Below are positions 3,813-25,783 of a stretch of 64,000 bases of DNA, one piece after another. The stretch comes from Candidatus Anderseniibacteriota bacterium. Lineage in GTDB: Bacteria; Patescibacteriota; Andersenbacteria; UBA10190. The DNA is taken from the NCBI GenBank assembly GCA_016197005.1, contig JACPWO010000002.1:146178-210177 (forward strand), read 5' to 3'. The position numbers and the translations under genes were made by a program. Positions within the stretch are counted from its first letter, which is position 1, and each line of letters starts with the position of its first letter. The notes below the pieces were generated by a model. It worked only from the letters and a program-made list of their open reading frames with translations. It did no database searches and was not told where the DNA came from.

Positions 3813-4226
3813 ATGTCGCAAACTCGTGTATTGGCTTTTGGCTCCTTTGATATTCTCCATGAGGGGCACAAATATTTTTTGACGGAGGCTCGTAAAACAG
3901 GAGACTACCTCACGGTTGTTGTGTCCCGGGATGGATATATTCGGGACAGTAAGAGGCGAGAGCCTTCAGTGCGTGAGGAGGAACGGGTAGAAGCAGTTAC
4001 AAAGCTGGCTATTGCTGATGAGGTAATGCTTGGAGACGAGGCATCGGGGTATGGGCTGCTCAAAGAGCTTTCGTTTGATGTTCTGGTGGTGGGCTATGAT
4101 CAAAAGCCAAGTGATACTGCTATTCGTCGTCTTTTGGATGATGCCGGCAAAAAGGAAGTGCGGCTGGTACGGCTGCCACCATATAAGCCAGAGACATATA
4201 AATCCTCACTCCTGCGGAAAGCATAG
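3813..4226 (+). CDS. cytidylyltransferase-family nucleotidyltransferase (HxGH motif; FAD synthetase/RibL- or TagD-like)
   Basis: MSQTRVLAFGSFDILHEGHKYFL carries the HxGH nucleotidyltransferase motif. Start trimmed from ORF-track 3669 to ATG 3813 to remove overlap with the upstream gene. Confidence 0.6.
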   Translation: MSQTRVLAFGSFDILHEGHKYFLTEARKTGDYLTVVVSRDGYIRDSKRREPSVREEERVEAVTKLAIADEVMLGDEASGYGLLKELSFDVLVVGYDQKPSDTAIRRLLDDAGKKEVRLVRLPPYKPETYKSSLLRKA

Positions 4227-4244
4227 GCGTGCTAGGATAGGTAC

Positions 4245-4796
4245 ATGCGGGAAATAAATCTCCTTCCCACCCCTCGCCGCACTTTTCTGCGTCGACAGTG
4301 GATATATGACTCACTGCGGCGTTTTGTGTTTAACATAAATGTCGCTCTGATTATTATGACGGCGGTAGCGCTTGCTACGTTGGCCGGGTTACGTAGCGTT
4401 TCTTTCTTTACCTCAGCTGATGCGGAATCTACTATTCCTGAATATCTAGGAAAGTATCAAGCCACTAAACAAGCAATTGAAGAAAAGAATCGGCTCATTG
4501 CTCAGGCTAGCGCGGCCGACCAAGGTCGAATCATTTGGGGGGATTATATAACCGAGCTTTTAAATGTACTACCGCCCGGCACTCTTGTTGAACGTATTAC
4601 GGCTGATGCGGACCAGGAAGAAATAATGGTCACTGGAGATACGGTAAACCGCAGCTCCTTAACGCTACTGGATGCCCGTATTAAAAGTTTATCGTGGGCG
4701 AAAGAAGTACGTGCGCCACTTACAAACTTACTTGATCGCGAAAACCCAGAGTTTTCCTTCACCATTATTCTGAATAGGAACGCAGCAGAGCCGTAA
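4245..4796 (+). CDS. PilN-like fimbrial assembly membrane protein (third copy)
   Basis: MREINLLPTPRR is a PilN-type N-terminus. Single TM follows. Confidence 0.5.
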   Translation: MREINLLPTPRRTFLRRQWIYDSLRRFVFNINVALIIMTAVALATLAGLRSVSFFTSADAESTIPEYLGKYQATKQAIEEKNRLIAQASAADQGRIIWGDYITELLNVLPPGTLVERITADADQEEIMVTGDTVNRSSLTLLDARIKSLSWAKEVRAPLTNLLDRENPEFSFTIILNRNAAEP

Positions 4797-4821
4797 TCTC
4801 CCTTTACACGAGAATCCTTTT

Positions 4822-4859
4822 CTACTACCCTTAAGTCTCTTAGGTAGTAGCTCTTTTTT
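4822..4859 (+). terminator. rho-independent terminator
   Basis: CTACTACC-loop-GGTAGTAG hairpin followed by CTCTTTTTT. Confidence 0.6.
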
Positions 4860-4956
4860 GGGGACGTAGCTCAGTGGGAGAGCGTCAGAGTATTGCTCGT
4901 CTCGCGAGGGGCAATTACAACTCTGAAGGTCGAAGGTTCAAGTCCTTCCGTCTCCA
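4860..4956 (+). tRNA. tRNA-Val-like gene with a roughly 25-nt hairpin insertion in the anticodon arm (anticodon most plausibly UAC; ACA is also possible depending on boundaries)
   Basis: Acceptor GGGGACG/CGTCTCC with discriminator A. D-arm GCTC-AGTGGGA-GAGC. Anticodon stem TCAGA/TCTGA. Variable loop AGGTC. T-arm GAAGG-TTCAAGT-CCTTC. The anticodon loop region is 32 nt instead of 7 and contains the hairpin ATTGC-TCG-tctcg-CGA-GGG-GCAAT immediately 5' of TTACAAC. No CCA encoded. Confidence 0.6.
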
Positions 4957-4960
4957 TTTC

Positions 4961-4983
4961 GCACCCGCTTTGGGTGCTTTTTG
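4961..4983 (+). terminator. rho-independent terminator after the tRNA
   Basis: GCACCC-gcttt-GGGTGC hairpin followed by TTTTTG. Confidence 0.6.
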
Positions 4984-4996
4984 TTATACTCATTCT

Positions 4997-5938
4997 ATGG
5001 CTGAACCGATTATCCTTCCTGCAGGCGCAGCAATTGCCATTATTGCCTTCTTGCTGGCTCTACTACCCGCTGGATTCTTTCTGTGGCTATGGTATTTACG
5101 TCGTCGTGACCGCAGTGTCCCGGCGAGCGTTATGGCAGCTGCTTTCGTGAGCGGTCTTTTGCTTATTCCAGCGGCCTTTTGGCTGGAAGAGGGGGGTCAA
5201 AAGATTTGGGCTTTTCTTAGTCCGGCCACCGTTCATTATTTCAGTACCGATACTCTCGCCTTATTTGAATTGCAGGATGCAATTTTACCTGCCATAGCTG
5301 CATTCCTGATTGTAGCCACCGTTGAAGAAGGGCTACGATATATTGTTTTACGGGTGTGGTTCCGCTTTAGCAAAGGCATTGATCAAATATTTGATGGTCT
5401 TATTGTTGGTGTCGGTGTAGGAGTGGGGTTTGCGACACTGGAAAACACACTTTATTTCCTGGATCTTTTCCGAGGTGGTAGTTTTGATACTCTCGTATTC
5501 GTTTTCTTTCTCCGCTTTGCCATTTCAACCTTAGCTCATGTTAGCTTCTCGGGACTGATGGGAGTTTGGTTGGCTAAGAACTCGCTTGAGTTTCTTTCAG
5601 GCAGACGCTACGCCCTGATGGCCTTTTTTATTCCGTGGTTCTTACACGGTCTCTTCGATTGGCTTCTGACAATTGGTATGAGTATGTATGCCGTACTTGT
5701 TTTACTAGCCCCGCTGCTTGTCTTAATCGGTTGGGCAGGGCAGTCCCACATGTTCGTCGTACATAGGCGTAACGGCAAAACATTAGCGGCCGGAGAGGCA
5801 GTAAGTTCTAGAGAAGTACGGGCCGTGAATAAACTTATGCAAACGCAGGATTCACCATGGAATAAATACGCTCCCTGGCTTTCTCGCACCAAAACATATC
5901 AAAAGATGCTAACATTAATACGTGAAGAAGAACTCTAA
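4997..5938 (+). CDS. PrsW-family intramembrane metalloprotease-like protein
   Basis: Multi-pass membrane protein with EEGLRY, FATLENTLY and HGLFD motifs (PrsW-like EExxK/R, FxxxE, HxxxD pattern). ORF-track start 4874 lies inside the tRNA and was trimmed to ATG 4997. Confidence 0.6.
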   Translation: MAEPIILPAGAAIAIIAFLLALLPAGFFLWLWYLRRRDRSVPASVMAAAFVSGLLLIPAAFWLEEGGQKIWAFLSPATVHYFSTDTLALFELQDAILPAIAAFLIVATVEEGLRYIVLRVWFRFSKGIDQIFDGLIVGVGVGVGFATLENTLYFLDLFRGGSFDTLVFVFFLRFAISTLAHVSFSGLMGVWLAKNSLEFLSGRRYALMAFFIPWFLHGLFDWLLTIGMSMYAVLVLLAPLLVLIGWAGQSHMFVVHRRNGKTLAAGEAVSSREVRAVNKLMQTQDSPWNKYAPWLSRTKTYQKMLTLIREEEL

Positions 5939-11041: not shown

Positions 11042-11718
11042 TCACGTGGTGTCCGGCTTTGATGAATGATCTTCGCGGAACTCGATCGTTATTGGGAACT
11101 TCGGTTGGGCACAAAGACGGATCAAAAGTTCGCCGAGCGCTTCTGGAGCCGAATTGCCAAACCCGGTTCCTTCAAATTCAGCTATCTCGGCCGAGAAGCG
11201 ACCGTTTTCGCCGGACTTGGGGCCTGTTAGGATGATGTTCCATTTGTTCGATCGACGATCCGGTGTGGTTGCCTGAATCATTATGCCTCCACTGGCTGAG
11301 GGGAGGGGATAATGCGTACGCGGTAGCGATTGATACCGAATGTTGGTACGCACAATCCCGCGCCCCATTGACTGCAAAGCAAATCGTCTCCTTTGACAAC
11401 TTGTCCGATGACAACAGGATCTTTTGGTTGCTCTGAAGCAAAAACAAACTGCGTTCCAACAAAGGATTCCTGCAGAAAATCTTCAGGCAAGTCCTCTCGC
11501 CTAGGGAAAGCGGAGAATTCAGCGGATGTTACGAGGGTGAGCGGATATCTTTTAATGATTTCCAGTCGTTTTTCTTCTTTCCTTTGTTTTTCTCTTGCCC
11601 GGTGGCTTTCAGCTCGTTCTCGATTGCGGCGCTGAATTTTGCGCACCACCTTTCTGATGTTAACAGCCATTGCCCCAACGAATATCATTGCCAACAGTGT
11701 GACTAACCATGGGTTCAT
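11042..11718 (-). pseudogene. membrane-anchored protein split into two overlapping frames (possible frameshift or authentic overlap)
   Basis: ORF 11281..11718 (N-terminal TM plus KR/E-rich helix) and ORF 11042..11377 overlap by 97 nt in different frames on the same strand. Together they span one intergenic-free block. Confidence 0.3.
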
Positions 11719-13149: not shown

Positions 13150-13404
13150 TTATACTATCTCGCCCTGTATGAGTTTTTCCTTTTTTGCCCGTTTCCAACT
13201 CTTTACTTCAATTTCTGTTTTTCGCGCTACTGACTGATTTGGAAGTTCCGGAGATGTATACACCAATGTAAATGGTCCTTGATTAACGGCCATTCGAGAC
13301 CCTTTTCCAGTATTGTGATCTCGTATCCGTCTTTCTGGTTCCGTAGTTATTCCAACGTAATATCTACCAGTACGAGCTTGCGCGATGTAGAGATACCAGG
13401 GCAT
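13150..13404 (-). CDS. GIY-YIG nuclease-superfamily small protein (UPF0213-like)
   Basis: MPWYLYIAQARTGRYYVGITTEPERRIRDHNTGKG matches the GIY-YIG core. Confidence 0.7.
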   Translation of the reverse strand: MPWYLYIAQARTGRYYVGITTEPERRIRDHNTGKGSRMAVNQGPFTLVYTSPELPNQSVARKTEIEVKSWKRAKKEKLIQGEIV

Positions 13405-13482: not shown

Positions 13483-13809
13483 CTACTCTAATCCAAACTT
13501 CTGTCTTAATTTCAGGTCTTCTTCTTCAAGTTCTTCCTTGGTTTTTTGTATGCCATGTTCTGTTCTAAACCTCGCCATCTCATCTTTAATTTTTTGATAC
13601 TCTTGTTCACGTATTATCTGCGTGTGGTTTTCAGAGTTGTTCACACGAGAAATACGCTGGTCGGCGCTCGTATCTTTTGCTGCTTGCTTGGCTATTCTCT
13701 TTTCTATCCGCGACCAGTCAGTACTACCTGTTGATTTTTCTGGTTTTTGGCTATCAGAAGGTGTGTCGTTTTCTTCGGGAGTAATCTTTGGTTCCGATTC
13801 AATACCCAT
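13483..13809 (-). CDS. hypothetical charged protein
   Basis: Low-G+C ORF rich in K/E/Q. Start trimmed to MGIESEPK. Confidence 0.35.
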   Translation of the reverse strand: MGIESEPKITPEENDTPSDSQKPEKSTGSTDWSRIEKRIAKQAAKDTSADQRISRVNNSENHTQIIREQEYQKIKDEMARFRTEHGIQKTKEELEEEDLKLRQKFGLE

Positions 13810-13876
13810 GTAAAAAGTGTAATCCATCAAAAGGGGTGAAACTAGTCGCTTAGTTAGCACCAAGCAACTTTATAGT

Positions 13877-13891
13877 GTGGACACGGCGGGA
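13877..13891. repeat. direct repeat GTGGACACGGCGGGA, copy of the ssrA 3' terminus (distal attachment-site-like)
   Basis: 15/15 identity with 15230..15244, which is the 3' end of the tmRNA gene. Confidence 0.7.
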
Positions 13892-14050
13892 TCAAATGCA
13901 AACACCGCAAGTAGTACTTATGAGATAATAGGTGACTTGTTAGTAAGGGTAAGAGAAGCGCTGGAAATATTGCAGATGACATGGATTAGTAAAGAAAAAG
14001 AACCCTTGATGTAATCGCGGGTTCTGCTTGCACCGGCTGAGAAGAGGGAA

Positions 14051-14452
14051 TTACTCCTCCTGCTGTAGAATCCAGTGATAGTCGTTATCGAGCAACGTGT
14101 CGTGGTCACTTGTGAACTCGCCGCCGACTTCCGCGCGAATCTCTTGCAGTCGCTTCATTGCCGCCTTCGCGTCCTTCTTCGAGAATGTTGAGGTTTTCAG
14201 AATGTCACCCACACCCAATCCTGACCTTTTCCGCTTCAGCATCCCGAGGATTATCAAGCGACACCCTCGGTATTCCAACCGCAGCTCCATCAGTCGTTGC
14301 CCTTCCGAGGTTTCTTTGGCCCACTGCAGAAGAGCTTTTTGAAACGTCAGCCGGTTCCGCTCGAAGATTTTATCCAGCCAATCGTGTTCGTAGTCGGAAG
14401 AGAGTACTGCCTCAGCGTTAACCTCAACAGTGATAGTCATATCGAACTTCAT
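14051..14452 (-). CDS. hypothetical protein in G+C-rich insert B
   Basis: High G+C with G/C-rich third positions, unlike the flanks. Start trimmed to MKFDMTI. Confidence 0.4.
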   Translation of the reverse strand: MKFDMTITVEVNAEAVLSSDYEHDWLDKIFERNRLTFQKALLQWAKETSEGQRLMELRLEYRGCRLIILGMLKRKRSGLGVGDILKTSTFSKKDAKAAMKRLQEIRAEVGGEFTSDHDTLLDNDYHWILQQEE

Positions 14453-14574
14453 TGGAGAACCCTTTTGTAGAGTGGTTTGCCTCTTGCCTAACACACGTTA
14501 AGCCGTAGGTTTGTTGCTGGAAAGAACCATCCTTAACGAATAATAAAACTCTTAAATTTAAATTGTGTCAAGTG

Positions 14575-14588
14575 GTGGACATGACGGG
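14575..14588. repeat. degenerate copy of the ssrA 3'-end repeat (GTGGACATGACGGG)
   Basis: 12/14 match to GTGGACACGGCGGG. Sits between the two G+C-rich ORFs and is preceded by TGTCAA, as is the copy at 15230. Confidence 0.5.
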
Positions 14589-14718
14589 CGTATCTTCAGA
14601 ACCATTCTTGATAAAATATTGCAATGGCATGAATTTTTGGTAAAGAAAACCCAGCTAGCCGAAGCTAAACTGGGGTAATGATGGTGGTCAGTTTCCACCG
14701 GGTTATTTAAGCAGTGAC

Positions 14719-15141
14719 CTACTCGCTTTTAGCGAGTTGCGTTTCCAAGCGGGCGATCTCGATTTCGAGTTGTTCGGGGCTCATGTCCTGAAGTCGGTCG
14801 AACATCGCGATTTCGAATGGATCATCGGGATTCACGCAGTTCTCACGGTAGTGTTCACGGCGTTTATCCTCGGCGACTTCCGCGGCGGTGAGACCAGAAG
14901 CGATCAACGTCTCGTTCTCGTCGCAGCCGACACTTTGCTCGCCAGTGAGATTCCAGTAAAGGTCCCACTGACCGAGTTTCCCTGGACGAAGTTGTCCGAA
15001 CTCGTAGCCGACGTTTTCCTTCGTCGTGTAGACGTTGAACCAATACAGCGTCTCTGCAGACAAATGACCTTCGATTGCTCGGCGTTGAGTCATCCAGAAT
15101 CTAAAGAACTGCTCCCTCTCCTCTACGGTTATTTCTTTCAT
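14719..15141 (-). CDS. hypothetical protein in G+C-rich insert A
   Basis: High-G+C ORF. The ORF-track N-terminal extension to 15276 overlaps the tmRNA 3' end, so start trimmed to ATG 15141 (MKEITVEE). Confidence 0.4.
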   Translation of the reverse strand: MKEITVEEREQFFRFWMTQRRAIEGHLSAETLYWFNVYTTKENVGYEFGQLRPGKLGQWDLYWNLTGEQSVGCDENETLIASGLTAAEVAEDKRREHYRENCVNPDDPFEIAMFDRLQDMSPEQLEIEIARLETQLAKSE

Positions 15142-15227
15142 GGCGGAGATCCTAGAACTGAAATGGGTGGAGTGTGAGAGTAAAGAACGTGCCGTTATAT
15201 TAGCACGTAAATTATTATTTGTCAAAT

Positions 15228-15626
15228 TGGTGGACACGGCGGGAATTGAACCCGCGTCTGAAACGCGATTACTCAATCTTCTACGCGCGTAGCTGTTCTA
15301 GTGATACTCACCGCAAAGCAGCAGAACAGCAAAGCCTTTGTTGTGAGTGAGATAGTGCAAGTCAACTAATACGTATCTCAGCCGTATCAGTTCAATCCGT
15401 CTAGGTTGACACCGTGATAGTGCGCGACGGATCGCACCAGACGATGGCTATAGGTTTTAAGCTACAGCGAACGCGAACGAAGGGGTGAGTGCAGATGCAA
15501 TCGCCGTCTTCGCGCGGTTAAACAAGTTTGCACGTGACTTGATGAGCTACTGGTATTTACGAGTGTATAACTCTTCACTCGGCGCGCTGATTGTGTAAAA
15601 AACATTCCATCGAAGCCTGTCATGCC
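15228..15626 (-). ncRNA. ssrA: tmRNA (transfer-messenger RNA)
   Basis: The 3' end reads GCGGGTTCAATTCCCGCCGTGTCCACCA, a tRNA-like T-arm plus acceptor and CCA. The 5' end GGGCATGACAGGCTTCGATGG resembles the conserved tmRNA 5' end and can pair with the 3' acceptor strand. An internal in-frame tag reading ends ...PSFAFAVA followed by TAA. Lies adjacent to smpB. Confidence 0.8.
15230..15244. repeat. direct repeat GTGGACACGGCGGGA at the tmRNA 3' terminus (proximal attachment-site-like)
   Basis: Identical to 13877..13891. Confidence 0.7.
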
Positions 15627-15677
15627 CAGTACCTATTTGAATTGCTTCCAATAGTTGTGGGGCAGCCCACACTTCTT

Positions 15678-16136
15678 TTAAAGATCTCGTCCGGCGAGAA
15701 GTCGCTGCGTTTCTCGGTCAAGATCTTTCTCTTTCTTTTGCTGCTTCTTTTCATACTTACGTTTCCCGCGAGCGAGTCCTACCGCAAGCTTTATTCGACC
15801 ACGCTTAGTATAGACACGAAGTGGTATAATTGTCAATCCTTGGGAGGATTTAGATCCAATCAAACTTTTAAGTTCTGATTTTTTAATGAGGAGGCGACGG
15901 GGACGAGAAGGGTCATACGTAGCCGGGGCATTGGCAATTTGCCATGGAGGAATAACCGCATTGGTGAGCCATGCTTGTTCATCATGAATAGTGACAAAAG
16001 CCCCTTTTAGACTGATATTCCCGCTTTTTACTGACTTTACTTCAGTGCCGAGCAATTCTAACCCAGCCTCGAGGCTTTCGAGGACTTCGTAGTCAAATCG
16101 GGCTCGTTTATTAATTGCTAAGCTCTTTTGGGGCAT
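15678..16136 (-). CDS. smpB: SsrA-binding protein SmpB
   Basis: MPQKSLAINKRARFDYEVLESLEAGLELLGTEVKSVKSGNISL...PSRPRRLLIKKSEL is an SmpB signature. Start trimmed to ATG 16136. Confidence 0.85.
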   Translation of the reverse strand: MPQKSLAINKRARFDYEVLESLEAGLELLGTEVKSVKSGNISLKGAFVTIHDEQAWLTNAVIPPWQIANAPATYDPSRPRRLLIKKSELKSLIGSKSSQGLTIIPLRVYTKRGRIKLAVGLARGKRKYEKKQQKKEKDLDRETQRLLAGRDL

Positions 16137-16215
16137 ATATAGGGCTAGTATGCCTGTTTTTAGGCCTTTCTGGAATCTATGTTGACAAATAATCATATTA
16201 GTGATATCTTAGGGT

Positions 16216-17034
16216 TTGCCAATGGTTGGCATTACCGCTGTTTCTGAATGTTCTTTTGGAAAAGCGGTCTCCATTACTGAACGTGCAAACAAGGCACAGG
16301 AGATTTCGATGCGTAACATGTCTCAAGTGCGTATGGCCTGTCGGGCACTTACGGAGTTTGATGCCCGCTGCCGCAACTATGTGAATGGCTGCGGGAAATG
16401 CTCGGGGCACGAGGGAAAGCCCGATGTGGGTATCGCCCCGCTTCTGCTGCTGACGTTCTCGCTCAGTGGCAAAAAGCTCCGAGCATTCAAGGACCAGCCC
16501 GATCTCCGTGTCTGGAATCGGGACCTTGAAAAGAAACTCAGCGTCCGCCAGCGCCACATCGACGAAGCGGAACGCCTCGGAAGAAAAGCTGAGGGCGTCT
16601 ACGGCCAAGGTCGAGTCGACAGTGGGGTACTTGTCTTCAAGGACATGCAAACGGATCCCACGGTCCAAGTCGTCACCGTTGATCATCTGTGGCGCTCAGA
16701 ACTCGAGGAGGCGGGTTACCGACTCATCGATGTTCATGTCGAAGAAGACGAGAAACAACCGAAAGGCCGGTTGGTCATCCGCTATCTCGACCCGGAGCAG
16801 GTGGAGTTCTCTCCTGAGATCGGTCAGGAAATCTCCCACACAACCCGTGGGATGATTGATGACCTCCTCCAGGCTTCGTTCAAATACGCCTGGATCTACT
16901 CGAACCACCCCAACCGGTCCGGCTTGAGAAACGATACGCTGAACATGCGGGAGCGTCTGACCGACGGCGTCCCGAGTGGTCTCCCGTCTCCGGCCCGTCT
17001 CGTCGTTGATGGAGGTTGCTGGAACTTGGAATAG
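16216..17034 (+). CDS. hypothetical protein on a G+C-rich foreign-looking segment (N-terminal Cys cluster CRNYVNGCGKCSGH)
   Basis: Roughly 0.85-kb segment with visibly higher G+C and G/C-rich codon third positions in this frame. Has its own terminator at 17068..17109. The antisense ORF 16198..16686 has junk-like composition. Start uncertain (16216, 16312 or 16321). Confidence 0.45.
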   Translation: MPMVGITAVSECSFGKAVSITERANKAQEISMRNMSQVRMACRALTEFDARCRNYVNGCGKCSGHEGKPDVGIAPLLLLTFSLSGKKLRAFKDQPDLRVWNRDLEKKLSVRQRHIDEAERLGRKAEGVYGQGRVDSGVLVFKDMQTDPTVQVVTVDHLWRSELEEAGYRLIDVHVEEDEKQPKGRLVIRYLDPEQVEFSPEIGQEISHTTRGMIDDLLQASFKYAWIYSNHPNRSGLRNDTLNMRERLTDGVPSGLPSPARLVVDGGCWNLE

Positions 17035-17067
17035 GAAGTCATCGTGACCCCCCTGCCGAGTTCAACA

Positions 17068-17109
17068 CCCCGCGCTTACCTTCTTGGTGAGTGCGGGTTT
17101 TCTTTTTTT
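17068..17109 (+). terminator. rho-independent terminator
   Basis: CCCGCGC...GTGCGGG hairpin followed by TTTTCTTTTTTT. Confidence 0.55.
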
Positions 17110-24175: not shown

Positions 24176-25420
24176 ATATAGAAATCAGTAGTCGTTCGTT
24201 AGAAAAGTCGGAACAGTAGAAGTGCGGCTCGGGCGAGAGAGGAGGTGGCATCAGGGTTTTTTACGAGCACTGCCTAAGGGCAATGGCTTGCTAAAATAGA
24301 ATATGCACCTCTTCTCGACAGCAATGAGTTAGTTCGAGATCCCGTCTGGGATGCTCGCCATCACGCACAAGTATCTGTGGAGGAGGTTACCATCCCCTCT
24401 CGATCGAGCCGCACTTTCATCATTAATGCAGTGAACACTATGTCCACTTCAATTGTGGGTATTGATGTCGCATCTCGCAAGCTTGATATGTGCATTGAGC
24501 AAGACGGGAAGCAGCAATATGCCACCATCGAAAATACGGCGCAGGCAATTGCGCAGTACGCAAAGGAGCACAAGCTCTCGCGCAAGAACTGTCTCGTTGG
24601 CCTGGAGGCAACGAACGATTACCACTTCGTGGTAACCCGGTTCTTTCTCAAGAAAGGGATTCCGGTTAGGATCATGAATCCCATTGTGACTAAGCGATAC
24701 ACCCGCACGACAGTGCGGGGGAAAAAGACAGACAAGACAGATGCACAGAACATTGCTCGTCTGGCCGCGGAAGGAGAGGGAGAATTGGCTAGCTTAAGCA
24801 ATGTAGACAACCGAGAGAAGGAACTTTTGAGACTCTCCCGATCACTTGTGAAGCTGAAAGTTCAGCTGACGTTGCGCCTGCAGAGCCTGCGCCGCAAGCA
24901 ACTCAAGAACACTGGCCGCATCGAACGAAAGCTGGAAAAGATTGAGGGCATGCTTTTTGATGTAGCAGAAGAGTTAGTAGGTGAAGTTACTGAAGATCGC
25001 TCCCACGACGAAGAGCTCATCGACTCCATTCCCGGATTCTCCACTAAGCTCTCCGCAATTGTTCATCATGAATTAGGCGATGTTACGAGATTCAAGAACG
25101 CGAGAAGCCTCGCTTCTTTTGCCGGACTTGATCCGAGGGTGGTACAGAGTGGCGGCAGGCTGCATACCAGCGGACGCCTCATGAAGCGAGGTTCCCCGTA
25201 CTTACGGTCAGCATTGTTCTTGGCTGCAAACGTGGCCTACCATTACGACGAAGAGCTTGGTGAATACTATGCAAAAAAGAAAGCCGAGGGAAGATCGCAC
25301 AAGGAAGTCCTATGCATCATTTCAAGGAAACTCCTGTACCGTATCTGGGCAGTGCTTAAAGAACAGCGAGAGTATGTAGTGAAACAAAATACAAACTAAA
25401 TGCTCTTGCGGAAGACATAG
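24176..25420 (+). mobile_element. IS110-family insertion sequence (boundaries approximate)
   Basis: Single DEDD-type transposase gene preceded by a roughly 265-nt non-coding left end and followed by a very short right end. This matches IS110-group architecture, which has no terminal inverted repeats. Confidence 0.6.
24440..25399 (+). CDS. IS110-family transposase (DEDD RuvC-like N-domain plus Ser-containing C-domain)
   Basis: IVGIDVASRKLD, LVGLEATNDYH and KTDKTDAQNIARLAA blocks (DEDD). C-terminal IPGFSTKLSAIVHHELGDVTRFKNARSLASFAGLDPRVVQSGG block. Confidence 0.85.
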   Translation: MSTSIVGIDVASRKLDMCIEQDGKQQYATIENTAQAIAQYAKEHKLSRKNCLVGLEATNDYHFVVTRFFLKKGIPVRIMNPIVTKRYTRTTVRGKKTDKTDAQNIARLAAEGEGELASLSNVDNREKELLRLSRSLVKLKVQLTLRLQSLRRKQLKNTGRIERKLEKIEGMLFDVAEELVGEVTEDRSHDEELIDSIPGFSTKLSAIVHHELGDVTRFKNARSLASFAGLDPRVVQSGGRLHTSGRLMKRGSPYLRSALFLAANVAYHYDEELGEYYAKKKAEGRSHKEVLCIISRKLLYRIWAVLKEQREYVVKQNTN

Positions 25421-25783
25421 TTAGCTATTTTCTACATGTTCTAAGCGTTCAGGCATATCATCTTGATAGCGAACTCGTTTATCTAGGGCTGTAATAGCTG
25501 ATGTGTTGATTTTAACCTCAGTTTCTAGGTCATCAACCTTTGTCTTTAAAATATCAACTGTACCGGAAAGACGAGAAACACCAGTTTCGAGAGAGCTTAA
25601 TCGTTCATCGAGATTGAAGACACTCTTTTCAACAGAACCAAGCCGTTTATCGAGACCAACCATACCTTTTTCAACAGAACCAAGCCGTTTATCAACCTTT
25701 CCGCTGAACAAACCAATAGCATCTACCAGTTCTTCCCACTCCGCGTGGGTAATAGGCTGATTCTTTGAATCTTTTCGAGGCAT
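25421..25783 (-). CDS. coiled-coil protein with 14-residue tandem repeats (hypothetical)
   Basis: Repeats DKRLGSVEKGMVGL / DKRLGSVEKSVFNL / DERLSSLETGVSRL. Underlying roughly 42-bp nucleotide tandem repeat at about 25610..25700. Confidence 0.4.
   Translation of the reverse strand: MPRKDSKNQPITHAEWEELVDAIGLFSGKVDKRLGSVEKGMVGLDKRLGSVEKSVFNLDERLSSLETGVSRLSGTVDILKTKVDDLETEVKINTSAITALDKRVRYQDDMPERLEHVENS

Follow-up and report, generated by a model that had tools for sequence, protein, structure and literature searches.

The locus described here raises the question of how two short, G+C-rich segments, each carrying a single gene, came to lie at the 3' end of ssrA, the gene for transfer-messenger RNA (tmRNA), in Candidatus Andersenbacteria, an uncultivated groundwater bacterium that belongs to the Parcubacteria within the candidate phyla radiation (CPR). 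The analysis covers 64 kb of its DNA (the window), and all units, sites and coordinates are given in window numbering. Integration at tRNA and tmRNA genes is textbook biology, and ssrA is already known as an integration hotspot that can hold tandem arrays, some of whose members lack an integrase. Island catalogues are seeded on integrase genes, and units as small as the present ones are ignored. New here are the scale, with one gene in 0.64-0.68 kb, the self-contained promoter and terminator, and the CPR host; there is also a hint of wider repeat-bounded mini-cassette arrays in Patescibacteria. We consider it probable that the two segments are integrase-less one-gene modules that arrived by serial (or composite) site-specific insertion at ssrA. 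Our statements on integrases and on empty sites apply to the 64-kb window, to the loci of relatives and to the collections searched.

In RNA sense, which runs toward lower coordinates, the array consists of ssrA (ending in site C), unit 2, site B, unit 1 and site A, and the gene order is smpB, ssrA, ORF2, ORF1, a 108-aa gene, a GIY-YIG gene and obg (ORF, open reading frame; GC3, G+C content at third codon positions; att, attachment site). The parts of the array are:

15228..15627, minus strand: ssrA, the tmRNA gene, intact (Rfam RF00023, 121.9 bits, full model positions 1-374).
15230..15244, minus strand: site C, attL-like; the 15-nt core TCCCGCCGTGTCCAC (RNA sense) inside functional ssrA, followed by CA and then by ATTTGACA.
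14590..15227, minus strand: unit 2, 638 bp; promoter, ORF2, terminator and a tail of about 55 nt.
14719..15141, minus strand: ORF2, 140 aa, GC3 0.631; publicly annotated as a gene.
14573..14589, minus strand: site B, an internal att-like junction; GCCCGTCATGTCCACCA, 14/17 identical to the ssrA end, with CA within the 17-mer and then CTTGACA.
13892..14572, minus strand: unit 1, 681 bp; promoter box, ORF1, terminator and a tail of about 100 nt.
14051..14452, minus strand: ORF1, 133 aa, GC3 0.642; publicly annotated as a gene.
13877..13891, minus strand: site A, attR-like; an exact copy of the 15-nt ssrA 3' core, followed by ACTATAAAG (AC...), with no CCA.

A preliminary description of this locus had reported that the 15-nt 3' end of ssrA recurs perfectly at 13877..13891, and GTGGACACGGCGGGA is indeed exact both there and at 15230..15244, in direct orientation and approximately 1.35 kb apart. 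The degenerate middle copy that it placed at 14575..14588, with 12 of 14 positions matching, is present, but the extent needs correction: the match is 12/15 at 14575..14589 (GTGGACATGACGGGC), or 14/17 with CCA, and it is the sole further match in the window at up to three mismatches. A concern that the 15-mer might be a generic repeat was not borne out in the window, where it was checked. The 64 kb contain only four distinct exact direct 15-mer pairs, and since one of them consists of precisely the terminal bases of ssrA, all three copies are real and non-random. Shuffling the 1.3 kb that separates the outer copies gave a 14/17 match in 17 of 20,000 trials. Site B sits exactly in the composition trough between ORF1 and ORF2, and a TTGACA box (14566..14571) follows it directly, as one does after site C. 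Identity is limited to the 15-17-nt core. In local alignments the left flanks were no better than shuffles, and the right flanks of sites C and B showed a marginal similarity (301 of 5,000 shuffles) that arises because the TTGACA box is common to both. The tRNA genes of the window have no comparable 3'-end repeats.

Alignment of the tmRNA shows that the repeat block runs from the last T-loop base through the 3' strands of the T-stem and the acceptor stem to the discriminator. A block reaching from the T-loop to the RNA 3' end is the geometry expected where a replacement 3' end is brought in by an island. At one end of the array the intact target gene is regenerated, the full-length tmRNA terminating exactly at site C. 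The 3' end of this gene is ...GGGTTCAATTCCCGCCGTGTCCACCA and includes an encoded CCA. As read from the sequence, its acceptor stem contains a G3:U70 pair and its tag ORF ends in ...AFAVA-stop. This tmRNA was not detected by ARAGORN but was detected by the Rfam covariance search. The three sites differ in polarity, in that sites C and B read GTCCAC-CA and then the TTGACA box, whereas site A reads GTCCAC-AC. The ssrA gene of the related genome L112 has the same 22-nt 3' end, which continues from GTCCAC into AC without CCA, exactly as at site A, and an encoded CCA is absent from most of the CPR ssrA genes examined. Because site A resembles these genes in lacking CCA, we infer that site A and its flank represent the displaced original end of ssrA. 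In that case the ends with CCA, at sites C and B, would come from element DNA.

The two ORFs differ clearly from the genes of the window in composition. The window has a G+C content of 46%, and the mean GC3 of its genes is 0.42 (standard deviation 0.08, 45 window genes), whereas ORF1 and ORF2 are 51-52.5% G+C and their GC3 values of 0.63-0.64 lie 2.7-2.9 standard deviations above that mean. Both the higher G+C of the inserts and the single minus-strand ORF in each were correctly described before, and the composition of the two ORFs is foreign. Each unit is built on the same plan. In unit 2, a promoter scan found a sigma-70-like promoter, TTGACA-17-TAATAT with an extended TG and a 10/12 match to consensus (15197..15225), whose -35 box starts 3 nt past CCA; RNA folding placed a G+C-rich terminator hairpin with a T-run at about 14642..14674. 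In unit 1, a -35 TTGACA is paired with a weak -10 (TTTTAT/TATTAT) at about 14543..14571, and the RNA fold gave a terminator hairpin with a T-run at about 13990..14025. No inverted repeats bounding unit 1 or unit 2 were found, and the 3' tails of the units fold no better than shuffles (z = -1.4 and +0.15).

Neither ORF1 nor ORF2 matched a family in Pfam, PHROGs, PADLOC or NCBIfam. The structure predicted for ORF2 is a confidently folded all-alpha bundle, for which no known structure and no recombinase-like fold was matched; ORF2 is a candidate for selfish or defence-related cargo. ORF1 found only itself in a word-indexed protein search, while an exhaustive phmmer search returned three remote homologues with 36-48% identity. 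On the contig of one homologue, L117, the gene has the same promoter-ORF-terminator plan, and its terminator loop motif, GATTACATCAAGGG, is common with unit 1.

The junction between ssrA and unit 2 has a further feature of note. In most relatives a terminator hairpin stands right after ssrA, whereas ssrA of the window runs directly into the ORF2 promoter (15197..15227), and the sole hairpin candidate after it overlaps the ORF2 -10 box. Transcription of the tmRNA from the strong ssrA promoter may continue into ORF2. If the terminator hairpin of ssrA itself was lost as a consequence of the insertion, ORF2 would possibly be transcribed by ssrA read-through as well as from its own promoter.

To place the array among its relatives, we compared it with public genomes and metagenomes. 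Public contigs that encode ORF1 or ORF2 exactly were all 100% identical over the 7 kb compared and therefore offer no strain-level polymorphism usable for an empty-site test. The nearest genomes are L112 (SmpB approximately 69% identical, by tblastx) and L018 (63%, the best among GTDB representatives). Both have a terminator hairpin and then a small GIY-YIG gene after ssrA and lack ORF1, ORF2 and any core repeat, but because the downstream synteny of L112 and L018 differs from that of the window, they are loose 'empty' comparators only. The 22-mer ssrA end, used to scan metagenomes, retrieved mostly tRNA genes, together with three tmRNA contigs, none of which had a repeat.

Repeats of the ssrA end were observed at other loci. 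In L019 (contig CAYJKV010000001.1, 8988..11892; SmpB 62%), three direct repeats of approximately 184 nt start in the ssrA T-loop. These are 82-90% identical overall and approximately 99% identical over about 130 nt downstream of the gene, a stretch with three hairpins; copies 2 and 3 have a common left arm that differs from ssrA, and the intervals between the repeats hold unrelated small genes of heterogeneous composition. In L036 and L088, the ssrA end is repeated directly 170-180 nt downstream, and a fragment of it lies inverted between the two copies. The L036 copy reads ...CTCCAC-CA-TTTTGACA and is followed by an ORF, so that the junction grammar is as in the window. In L100, several fragments of the ssrA 3' and 5' ends, in both orientations, lie between the tmRNA gene and a homologue of the ORF2 module. 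Since it recurs in at least four other Patescibacteria loci (L019, L036, L088 and L100), the pattern does not seem to be an isolated case. In the literature searched, neither ssrA cassette arrays nor integrons were described for Patescibacteria.

Some of these loci show additional rearrangements. In L019, a perfect 25-nt hairpin repeat, TTCAAACATCGGGTGTTTGAATTTT (10302 and 11223), stands on both sides of one of the small genes (208 aa, minus strand), an arrangement that suggests a nested insertion. Just past the ssrA terminator, the acceptor and T-arm 3' strand of ssrA recurs in inverted orientation, with a hairpin inserted, in L100 (1296..1700), L036 (8896..8913) and L088 (5473..5520). These inverted fragments could be scars of att-site inversions or pseudo-ssrA fragments. 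L100 also contains degenerate copies of the tmRNA 5' end, a 104-nt tandem duplication and a weak, sub-threshold Rfam match to the permuted-tmRNA model (23.6 bits, E = 0.008).

The cargo of unit 2 belongs to a family that has been distributed as a module. The ORF2 family is highly conserved and comprises 64 homologous clusters of about 140 aa, 52-85% identical to ORF2 and without a Pfam domain, and those of its members that carry a taxonomic name are from Parcubacteria. An alignment of six loci (genomes) showed that conservation at the DNA level begins exactly with the -35 TTGACA and extends to the terminator. The GC3 of the module is 0.58-0.73 regardless of a host G+C of 0.33-0.50, and ORF2 is 78% identical between the window and L100, whereas the SmpB proteins of the same pair are 46% identical. 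Eight contexts of the module are known, two of which (the window and L100) are adjacent to ssrA; in one further context, known from gene calls only, it lies beside a Fic gene. No integrase is present among the called genes of the seven contexts other than the window. On sequence evidence, the ORF2 module is mobile among Parcubacteria. ORF1-like genes were found in only 4 clusters, as compared to 64 for ORF2, and the two were never seen together outside this strain.

One context of the ORF2 module, L106 (Logan SRR29476923 contig, 4144..5726), has an organization of its own. Here, the interval from a NUDIX gene to an SMC-like gene is divided into units of 240-720 bp by at least five direct repeats of 36-60 nt (consensus ...GAAGATGGnGGTnTnATAGAGTTTAA...), after which a small hairpin is often found, and the TTGACA box of the ORF2 module stands 3 nt after a repeat. 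L106 looks like a cassette array unrelated to ssrA, with no integrase among its called genes.

Together, the T-loop-to-3'-end block, the regeneration of ssrA, the CCA polarity, the foreign GC3, the tandem layout and the recurrence in relatives argue for site-specific integration at a tDNA (a tRNA or tmRNA gene). In the model that we propose, two horizontally acquired one-gene modules would have inserted successively at the end of ssrA, through site-specific recombination inside the 15-17-nt block between the T-loop and the RNA end. Each insertion would rebuild a functional ssrA 3' end from element DNA, with CCA encoded and the TTGACA box of the cargo gene immediately after it, and would displace the previous ssrA 3' end downstream, so that site A would be the original ssrA terminus with its native flank. 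The recombinase would be encoded elsewhere: in the rest of the genome, in a helper element, or in a part of the element that has since been lost. The degenerate inner repeat could be accommodated if unit 2 brought an arm unlike the host sequence and the crossover fell in the shared TGTCCACCA, or if both units arrived as one composite. The model predicts an empty-site junction of ...GGGTTCAATTCCCGCCGTGTCCAC joined to ACTATAAAGTTGCTTGG. For an excised circle of unit 2 the predicted junction is ...GAAGATACGCCCGTCATGTCCACCAATTTGACAAATAAT; for a circle of unit 1, or a composite circle of units 1 and 2, it is ...GCATTTGATCCCGCCGTGTCCACCACTTGACACAATTT, or the same left part and then ...CCAATTTGACA.

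Several results weigh against this model. No tyrosine or serine recombinase (PF00589, PF00239-type) was found in the 64 kb, based on precomputed Pfam assignments for all called genes from approximately 4.05 to 64 kb and our own search of the larger ORFs within the initial 4 kb. Nor was an integrase found near the analogous arrays, for which the ORFs of L019 downstream of ssrA were scanned, the called genes of L100 were inspected and the flanks of L036 and L088 were checked in part. The collections searched yielded no empty site, and searches of IMG/VR, GenBank phages and PLSDB plasmids did not turn up a donor element with ORF1, ORF2 or a matching attP. That the outermost repeat is perfect (15/15) and the inner repeat degenerate (12/15) requires the additional assumption that the arm of unit 2 differed from the host sequence or that the units arrived jointly. 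Finally, L013, L015, L102 and L118 carry the ORF2 module between core genes with no detectable ssrA-derived repeats, and the direct repeats around it in L106 are unrelated to ssrA. The presence of the module at such sites implies that there are entry routes other than integration at ssrA, and that the module is not an obligate ssrA cassette. The preliminary description had taken the same ORFs in relatives without flanking repeats as an argument against integration, and this argument applies in part, since such cases are seen for ORF2 in the four genomes named. Its proposal of serial site-specific integration at ssrA is otherwise supported by the repeat geometry, the CCA polarity, GC3, the relatives and the precedent in Dehalococcoides.

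With respect to recombinases and donors, the earlier statement that no integrase lies in or next to the units can be extended to the whole window, in which the sole recombinase is an IS110-family DEDD transposase (24377..25399, plus strand; PF01548 and PF02371) approximately 9 kb from ssrA. Its gene is compositionally atypical (GC3 0.57), and a 42-nt tandem duplication lies just downstream of it at 25626..25679 (exact 15-mers 42 nt apart). We considered this transposase as a recombinase acting in trans and dropped the idea as unsupported, as nothing ties IS110 to the ssrA core sequence. Searches of IMG/VR found no relatives of ORF1, ORF2 or the ORF2 family profile, and searches of GenBank phages and PLSDB plasmids found none of ORF2. 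The 17-mers of sites C and B had six IMG/VR matches each, of which 11 in all lacked flanking similarity, consistent with chance. The remaining match is in L012 (IMGVR_UViG_3300033388_007160, 5490..5506), an 86-kb viral contig with a locus G+C of 0.54. It carries ...ACGCGGGTTCGAATCCCGCCGTGTCCACCA, a genuine tRNA/tmRNA-like 3' end whose last 17 nt are identical to the window, on a contig that is otherwise unrelated; this end is probably the attachment site, or tDNA in the host flank, of an unrelated prophage.

Other explanations of the array can be judged by the same evidence. The units may be remnants of normal-sized, integrase-bearing ssrA islands, in which deletion bias left a cargo gene and att scars that are now immobile. 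We regard such decay as possible, though on balance unlikely. It would agree with the absence of a recombinase from the window and with the degenerate inner repeat, as expected of an unselected scar, and strong deletion bias in a streamlined genome could give the same picture; moreover, integrase-bearing islands are the rule at ssrA (PMC4383910, PMC3146451). However, the units are clean promoter-ORF-terminator modules with approximately 55-130 nt of spare DNA and no pseudogene debris, and a promoter that begins 3 nt past CCA in unit 2 would require a near-perfect deletion, and this twice. The outer repeat is still perfect, and the ORF2 module occurs alone, with the same boundaries, in seven other contexts whose called genes include no integrase. 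Small units are therefore favoured over decay products by the clean modular anatomy, by the constant boundaries of the ORF2 module across genomes and by the similar small units in L019 and L106. A single composite insertion of 1.35 kb, bounded by the perfect 15-mers, seems somewhat less probable than decay. In such a composite, site B would be an older accretion junction, formed in a previous host with a slightly different ssrA end. The outer repeats (15/15, as compared to 12/15 for the inner one) and the nearly equal GC3 of ORF1 and ORF2 (0.642 and 0.631) fit this explanation, and accretion and co-mobilisation of tandem ssrA islands have been proposed for Dehalococcoides (PMC3146451). In contrast, ORF2 is found in 64 clusters and ORF1-like genes in 4, with the pair never seen together outside this strain; nothing else separates one event from two.

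An improbable alternative dispenses with a dedicated integrase altogether, and invokes transformed DNA carrying a short copy of the ssrA end, which would have recombined by a RecA-dependent (Campbell-type), homology-facilitated or microhomology-based illegitimate route. Such recombination also leaves direct repeats, and CPR bacteria are thought to depend on DNA uptake. The 184-nt repeats of L019, with approximately 99% identity over 130 nt, are long enough for homologous recombination, and the ORF2 module does reach non-ssrA sites without repeats. The block in the window, however, is only 15-17 nt long with dissimilar flanks, which is below the usual minimum for efficient RecA recombination; it corresponds exactly to the segment, from the T-loop to the 3' end, that tDNA integrases use, and ssrA was regenerated precisely twice. 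A recombinase-free route is thus plausible for the L019 repeats and unlikely for the block in the window. We give almost no weight to coincidence, that is, chance repeats beside ordinary native genes. It can draw on the four exact 15-mer pairs in 64 kb and on the window-wide shuffles, in which at least three matches at three mismatches appeared in 8 of 100. But the exact copy comprises just the last 15 nt of ssrA and lies within 1.4 kb as a direct repeat, the shuffle test for the site B 17-mer and the GC3 of the ORFs both depart from expectation (17/20,000 and 2.7-2.9 standard deviations, respectively), and the pattern recurs in relatives. An insertion sequence (IS) or an element resembling a miniature inverted-repeat transposable element was rejected as well, as neither unit has terminal inverted repeats or a transposase, and the 15-nt repeat is the tmRNA end and not an arbitrary target.

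Stacked site-specific insertion at ssrA, the explanation that we prefer, has its closest counterpart in Dehalococcoides. The ssrA islands of this genus are tandem and bounded by a 20-bp ssrA repeat that starts in the T-loop (PMC3146451). Fifteen of them, about half, lack an integration module and have been proposed to be cis-mobilizable elements (CIMEs) (McMurdie et al. 2011, PMC3146451). As in the window, the inserts lie directly downstream of a single-copy ssrA in a streamlined genome and have an atypical composition. They differ in that the Dehalococcoides islands are multi-gene and contain rdhA operons, whereas the units described here, with one gene each in 0.64-0.68 kb, are about ten times smaller. 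In addition, sibling islands in Dehalococcoides encode the ssrA-specific serine recombinase DsiB, while no integration module was found in either unit or within the 64 kb of this CPR host. Units 1 and 2 also resemble the CIMEs and accretion arrays of the Streptococcus ICESt1/ICESt3 family, which are att-flanked, lack recombination and transfer functions, and lie in tandem at a conserved site; any mobility would depend on a recombinase supplied in trans. Both units have att-like repeats and lack recombination and transfer genes. However, CIMEs usually measure several kb and are defined by a cognate integrative and conjugative element (ICE) or integrative and mobilizable element (IME) that shares their att sites. 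A cognate autonomous element (ICE, IME or island) sharing these att sites was sought without success in the window, in the loci of relatives that were read, and in the IMG/VR, phage and plasmid collections.

Two further systems invite comparison. Sedentary chromosomal integron arrays likewise consist of serial sub-kb units, mostly with a single ORF of unknown function, that are separated by a recurring site-like sequence, with the newest unit next to a fixed anchor; the near-identical 184-nt repeats of L019 recall the species-specific attC repeats of Vibrio superintegrons. In contrast to integrons, no intI stands by the anchor here, where the neighbour is smpB, and the window has no PF00589 match. 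The recurring sequence is the tmRNA 3' end and not an imperfect-palindrome attC (R''/R', GTTRRRY cores), and both units are equipped with a promoter box and a terminator, whereas most integron cassettes lack a promoter and are driven from Pc. With the tDNA islands catalogued by Islander and TIGER, the array shares a target gene regenerated at one end and a displaced 3' fragment at the other, and tandem arrays of such islands are known. The Islander-type databases are built on this same logic (PMC4383910). Such islands, however, are recognised by an integrase gene and typically measure at least 5 kb, so that units like those described here are invisible to integrase-seeded searches.

A broader and doubtful interpretation is that in CPR/Patescibacteria the tmRNA 3' end, and elsewhere other short anchor repeats, serve as docking sites for an integron-like capture of genes. 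Promoter-gene-terminator cassettes of less than 1 kb, such as those of the ORF2 family, would then be shuttled and stacked by an unlinked recombinase, either a host enzyme or a member of a new family. If so, these would be the smallest site-specifically mobilised units known at a tDNA site. Stacking of sub-kb, integrase-less units at ssrA, if it is correct for CPR bacteria, would give tiny genomes with few recognisable mobile elements a cheap route to gene gain. The signature tmRNA 3' core - CCA - TTGACA - ORF can be searched for, and with it metagenome-assembled genomes could be mined both for accessory genes and for the missing recombinase. The finding is an ordinary one, on the other hand, if the units are only scars of decayed islands.

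The array is flanked by genes of native composition:

15678..16136, minus strand: smpB, the gene for the tmRNA partner, directly upstream of ssrA (Pfam SmpB, E = 9.6e-48; GC3 0.37).
13483..13863, minus strand: the first gene past the array, encoding a low-complexity, charged protein of 108-126 aa (GC3 0.37); no family match in Pfam, PHROGs, PADLOC or NCBIfam.

Two genes beyond the array (13150..13404, minus strand), a small GIY-YIG protein is encoded that is 84% identical to one in L018 (5626..5874), although SmpB of the two is only 63% identical. A different small GIY-YIG gene lies immediately downstream of ssrA in L018 (4319..4546) and L112 (1414..1653). It may be that these mini GIY-YIG genes are mobile in their own right or are associated with ssrA.

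A third one-gene module was observed on the other side of smpB, at 16182..17107 on the plus strand, wedged tightly between smpB and truD. Its promoter, TTGACA-17-TATCTT with an extended TG, is 80% identical over 25 nt to that of ORF2, with which it forms an inverted-repeat pair, and it ends in a strong terminator (17069..17107). The module encodes a 270-aa ORFan (16222..17034, GC3 0.642) for which no homologue was found among 5.8 billion proteins and no match in Pfam, PHROGs, PADLOC or NCBIfam. This module is foreign; no repeat was seen flanking it. The ORFan was considered as a novel recombinase, but nothing points that way: there are no homologues, and the single-sequence AlphaFold model was unusable (predicted local distance difference test score, 38). 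Another small acquired segment may be represented by a locally G+C-rich region at 11042..11718 (minus strand), where two small ORFs of 79 and 145 aa (GC3 0.55 and 0.45) lie between a CMAS-like methyltransferase gene and obg; the 145-aa ORF has a weak PHROG lipoprotein match.

A further observation concerns a tRNA gene at 4860..4956 (plus strand), which was detected by Rfam with 59.1 bits and was not reported by ARAGORN. It overlaps the longest ORF (from 4874) of the adjacent PrsW-protease gene. A 32-nt stretch occupies the place of the 7-nt anticodon loop of the model, which suggests that this tRNA gene contains an intron.

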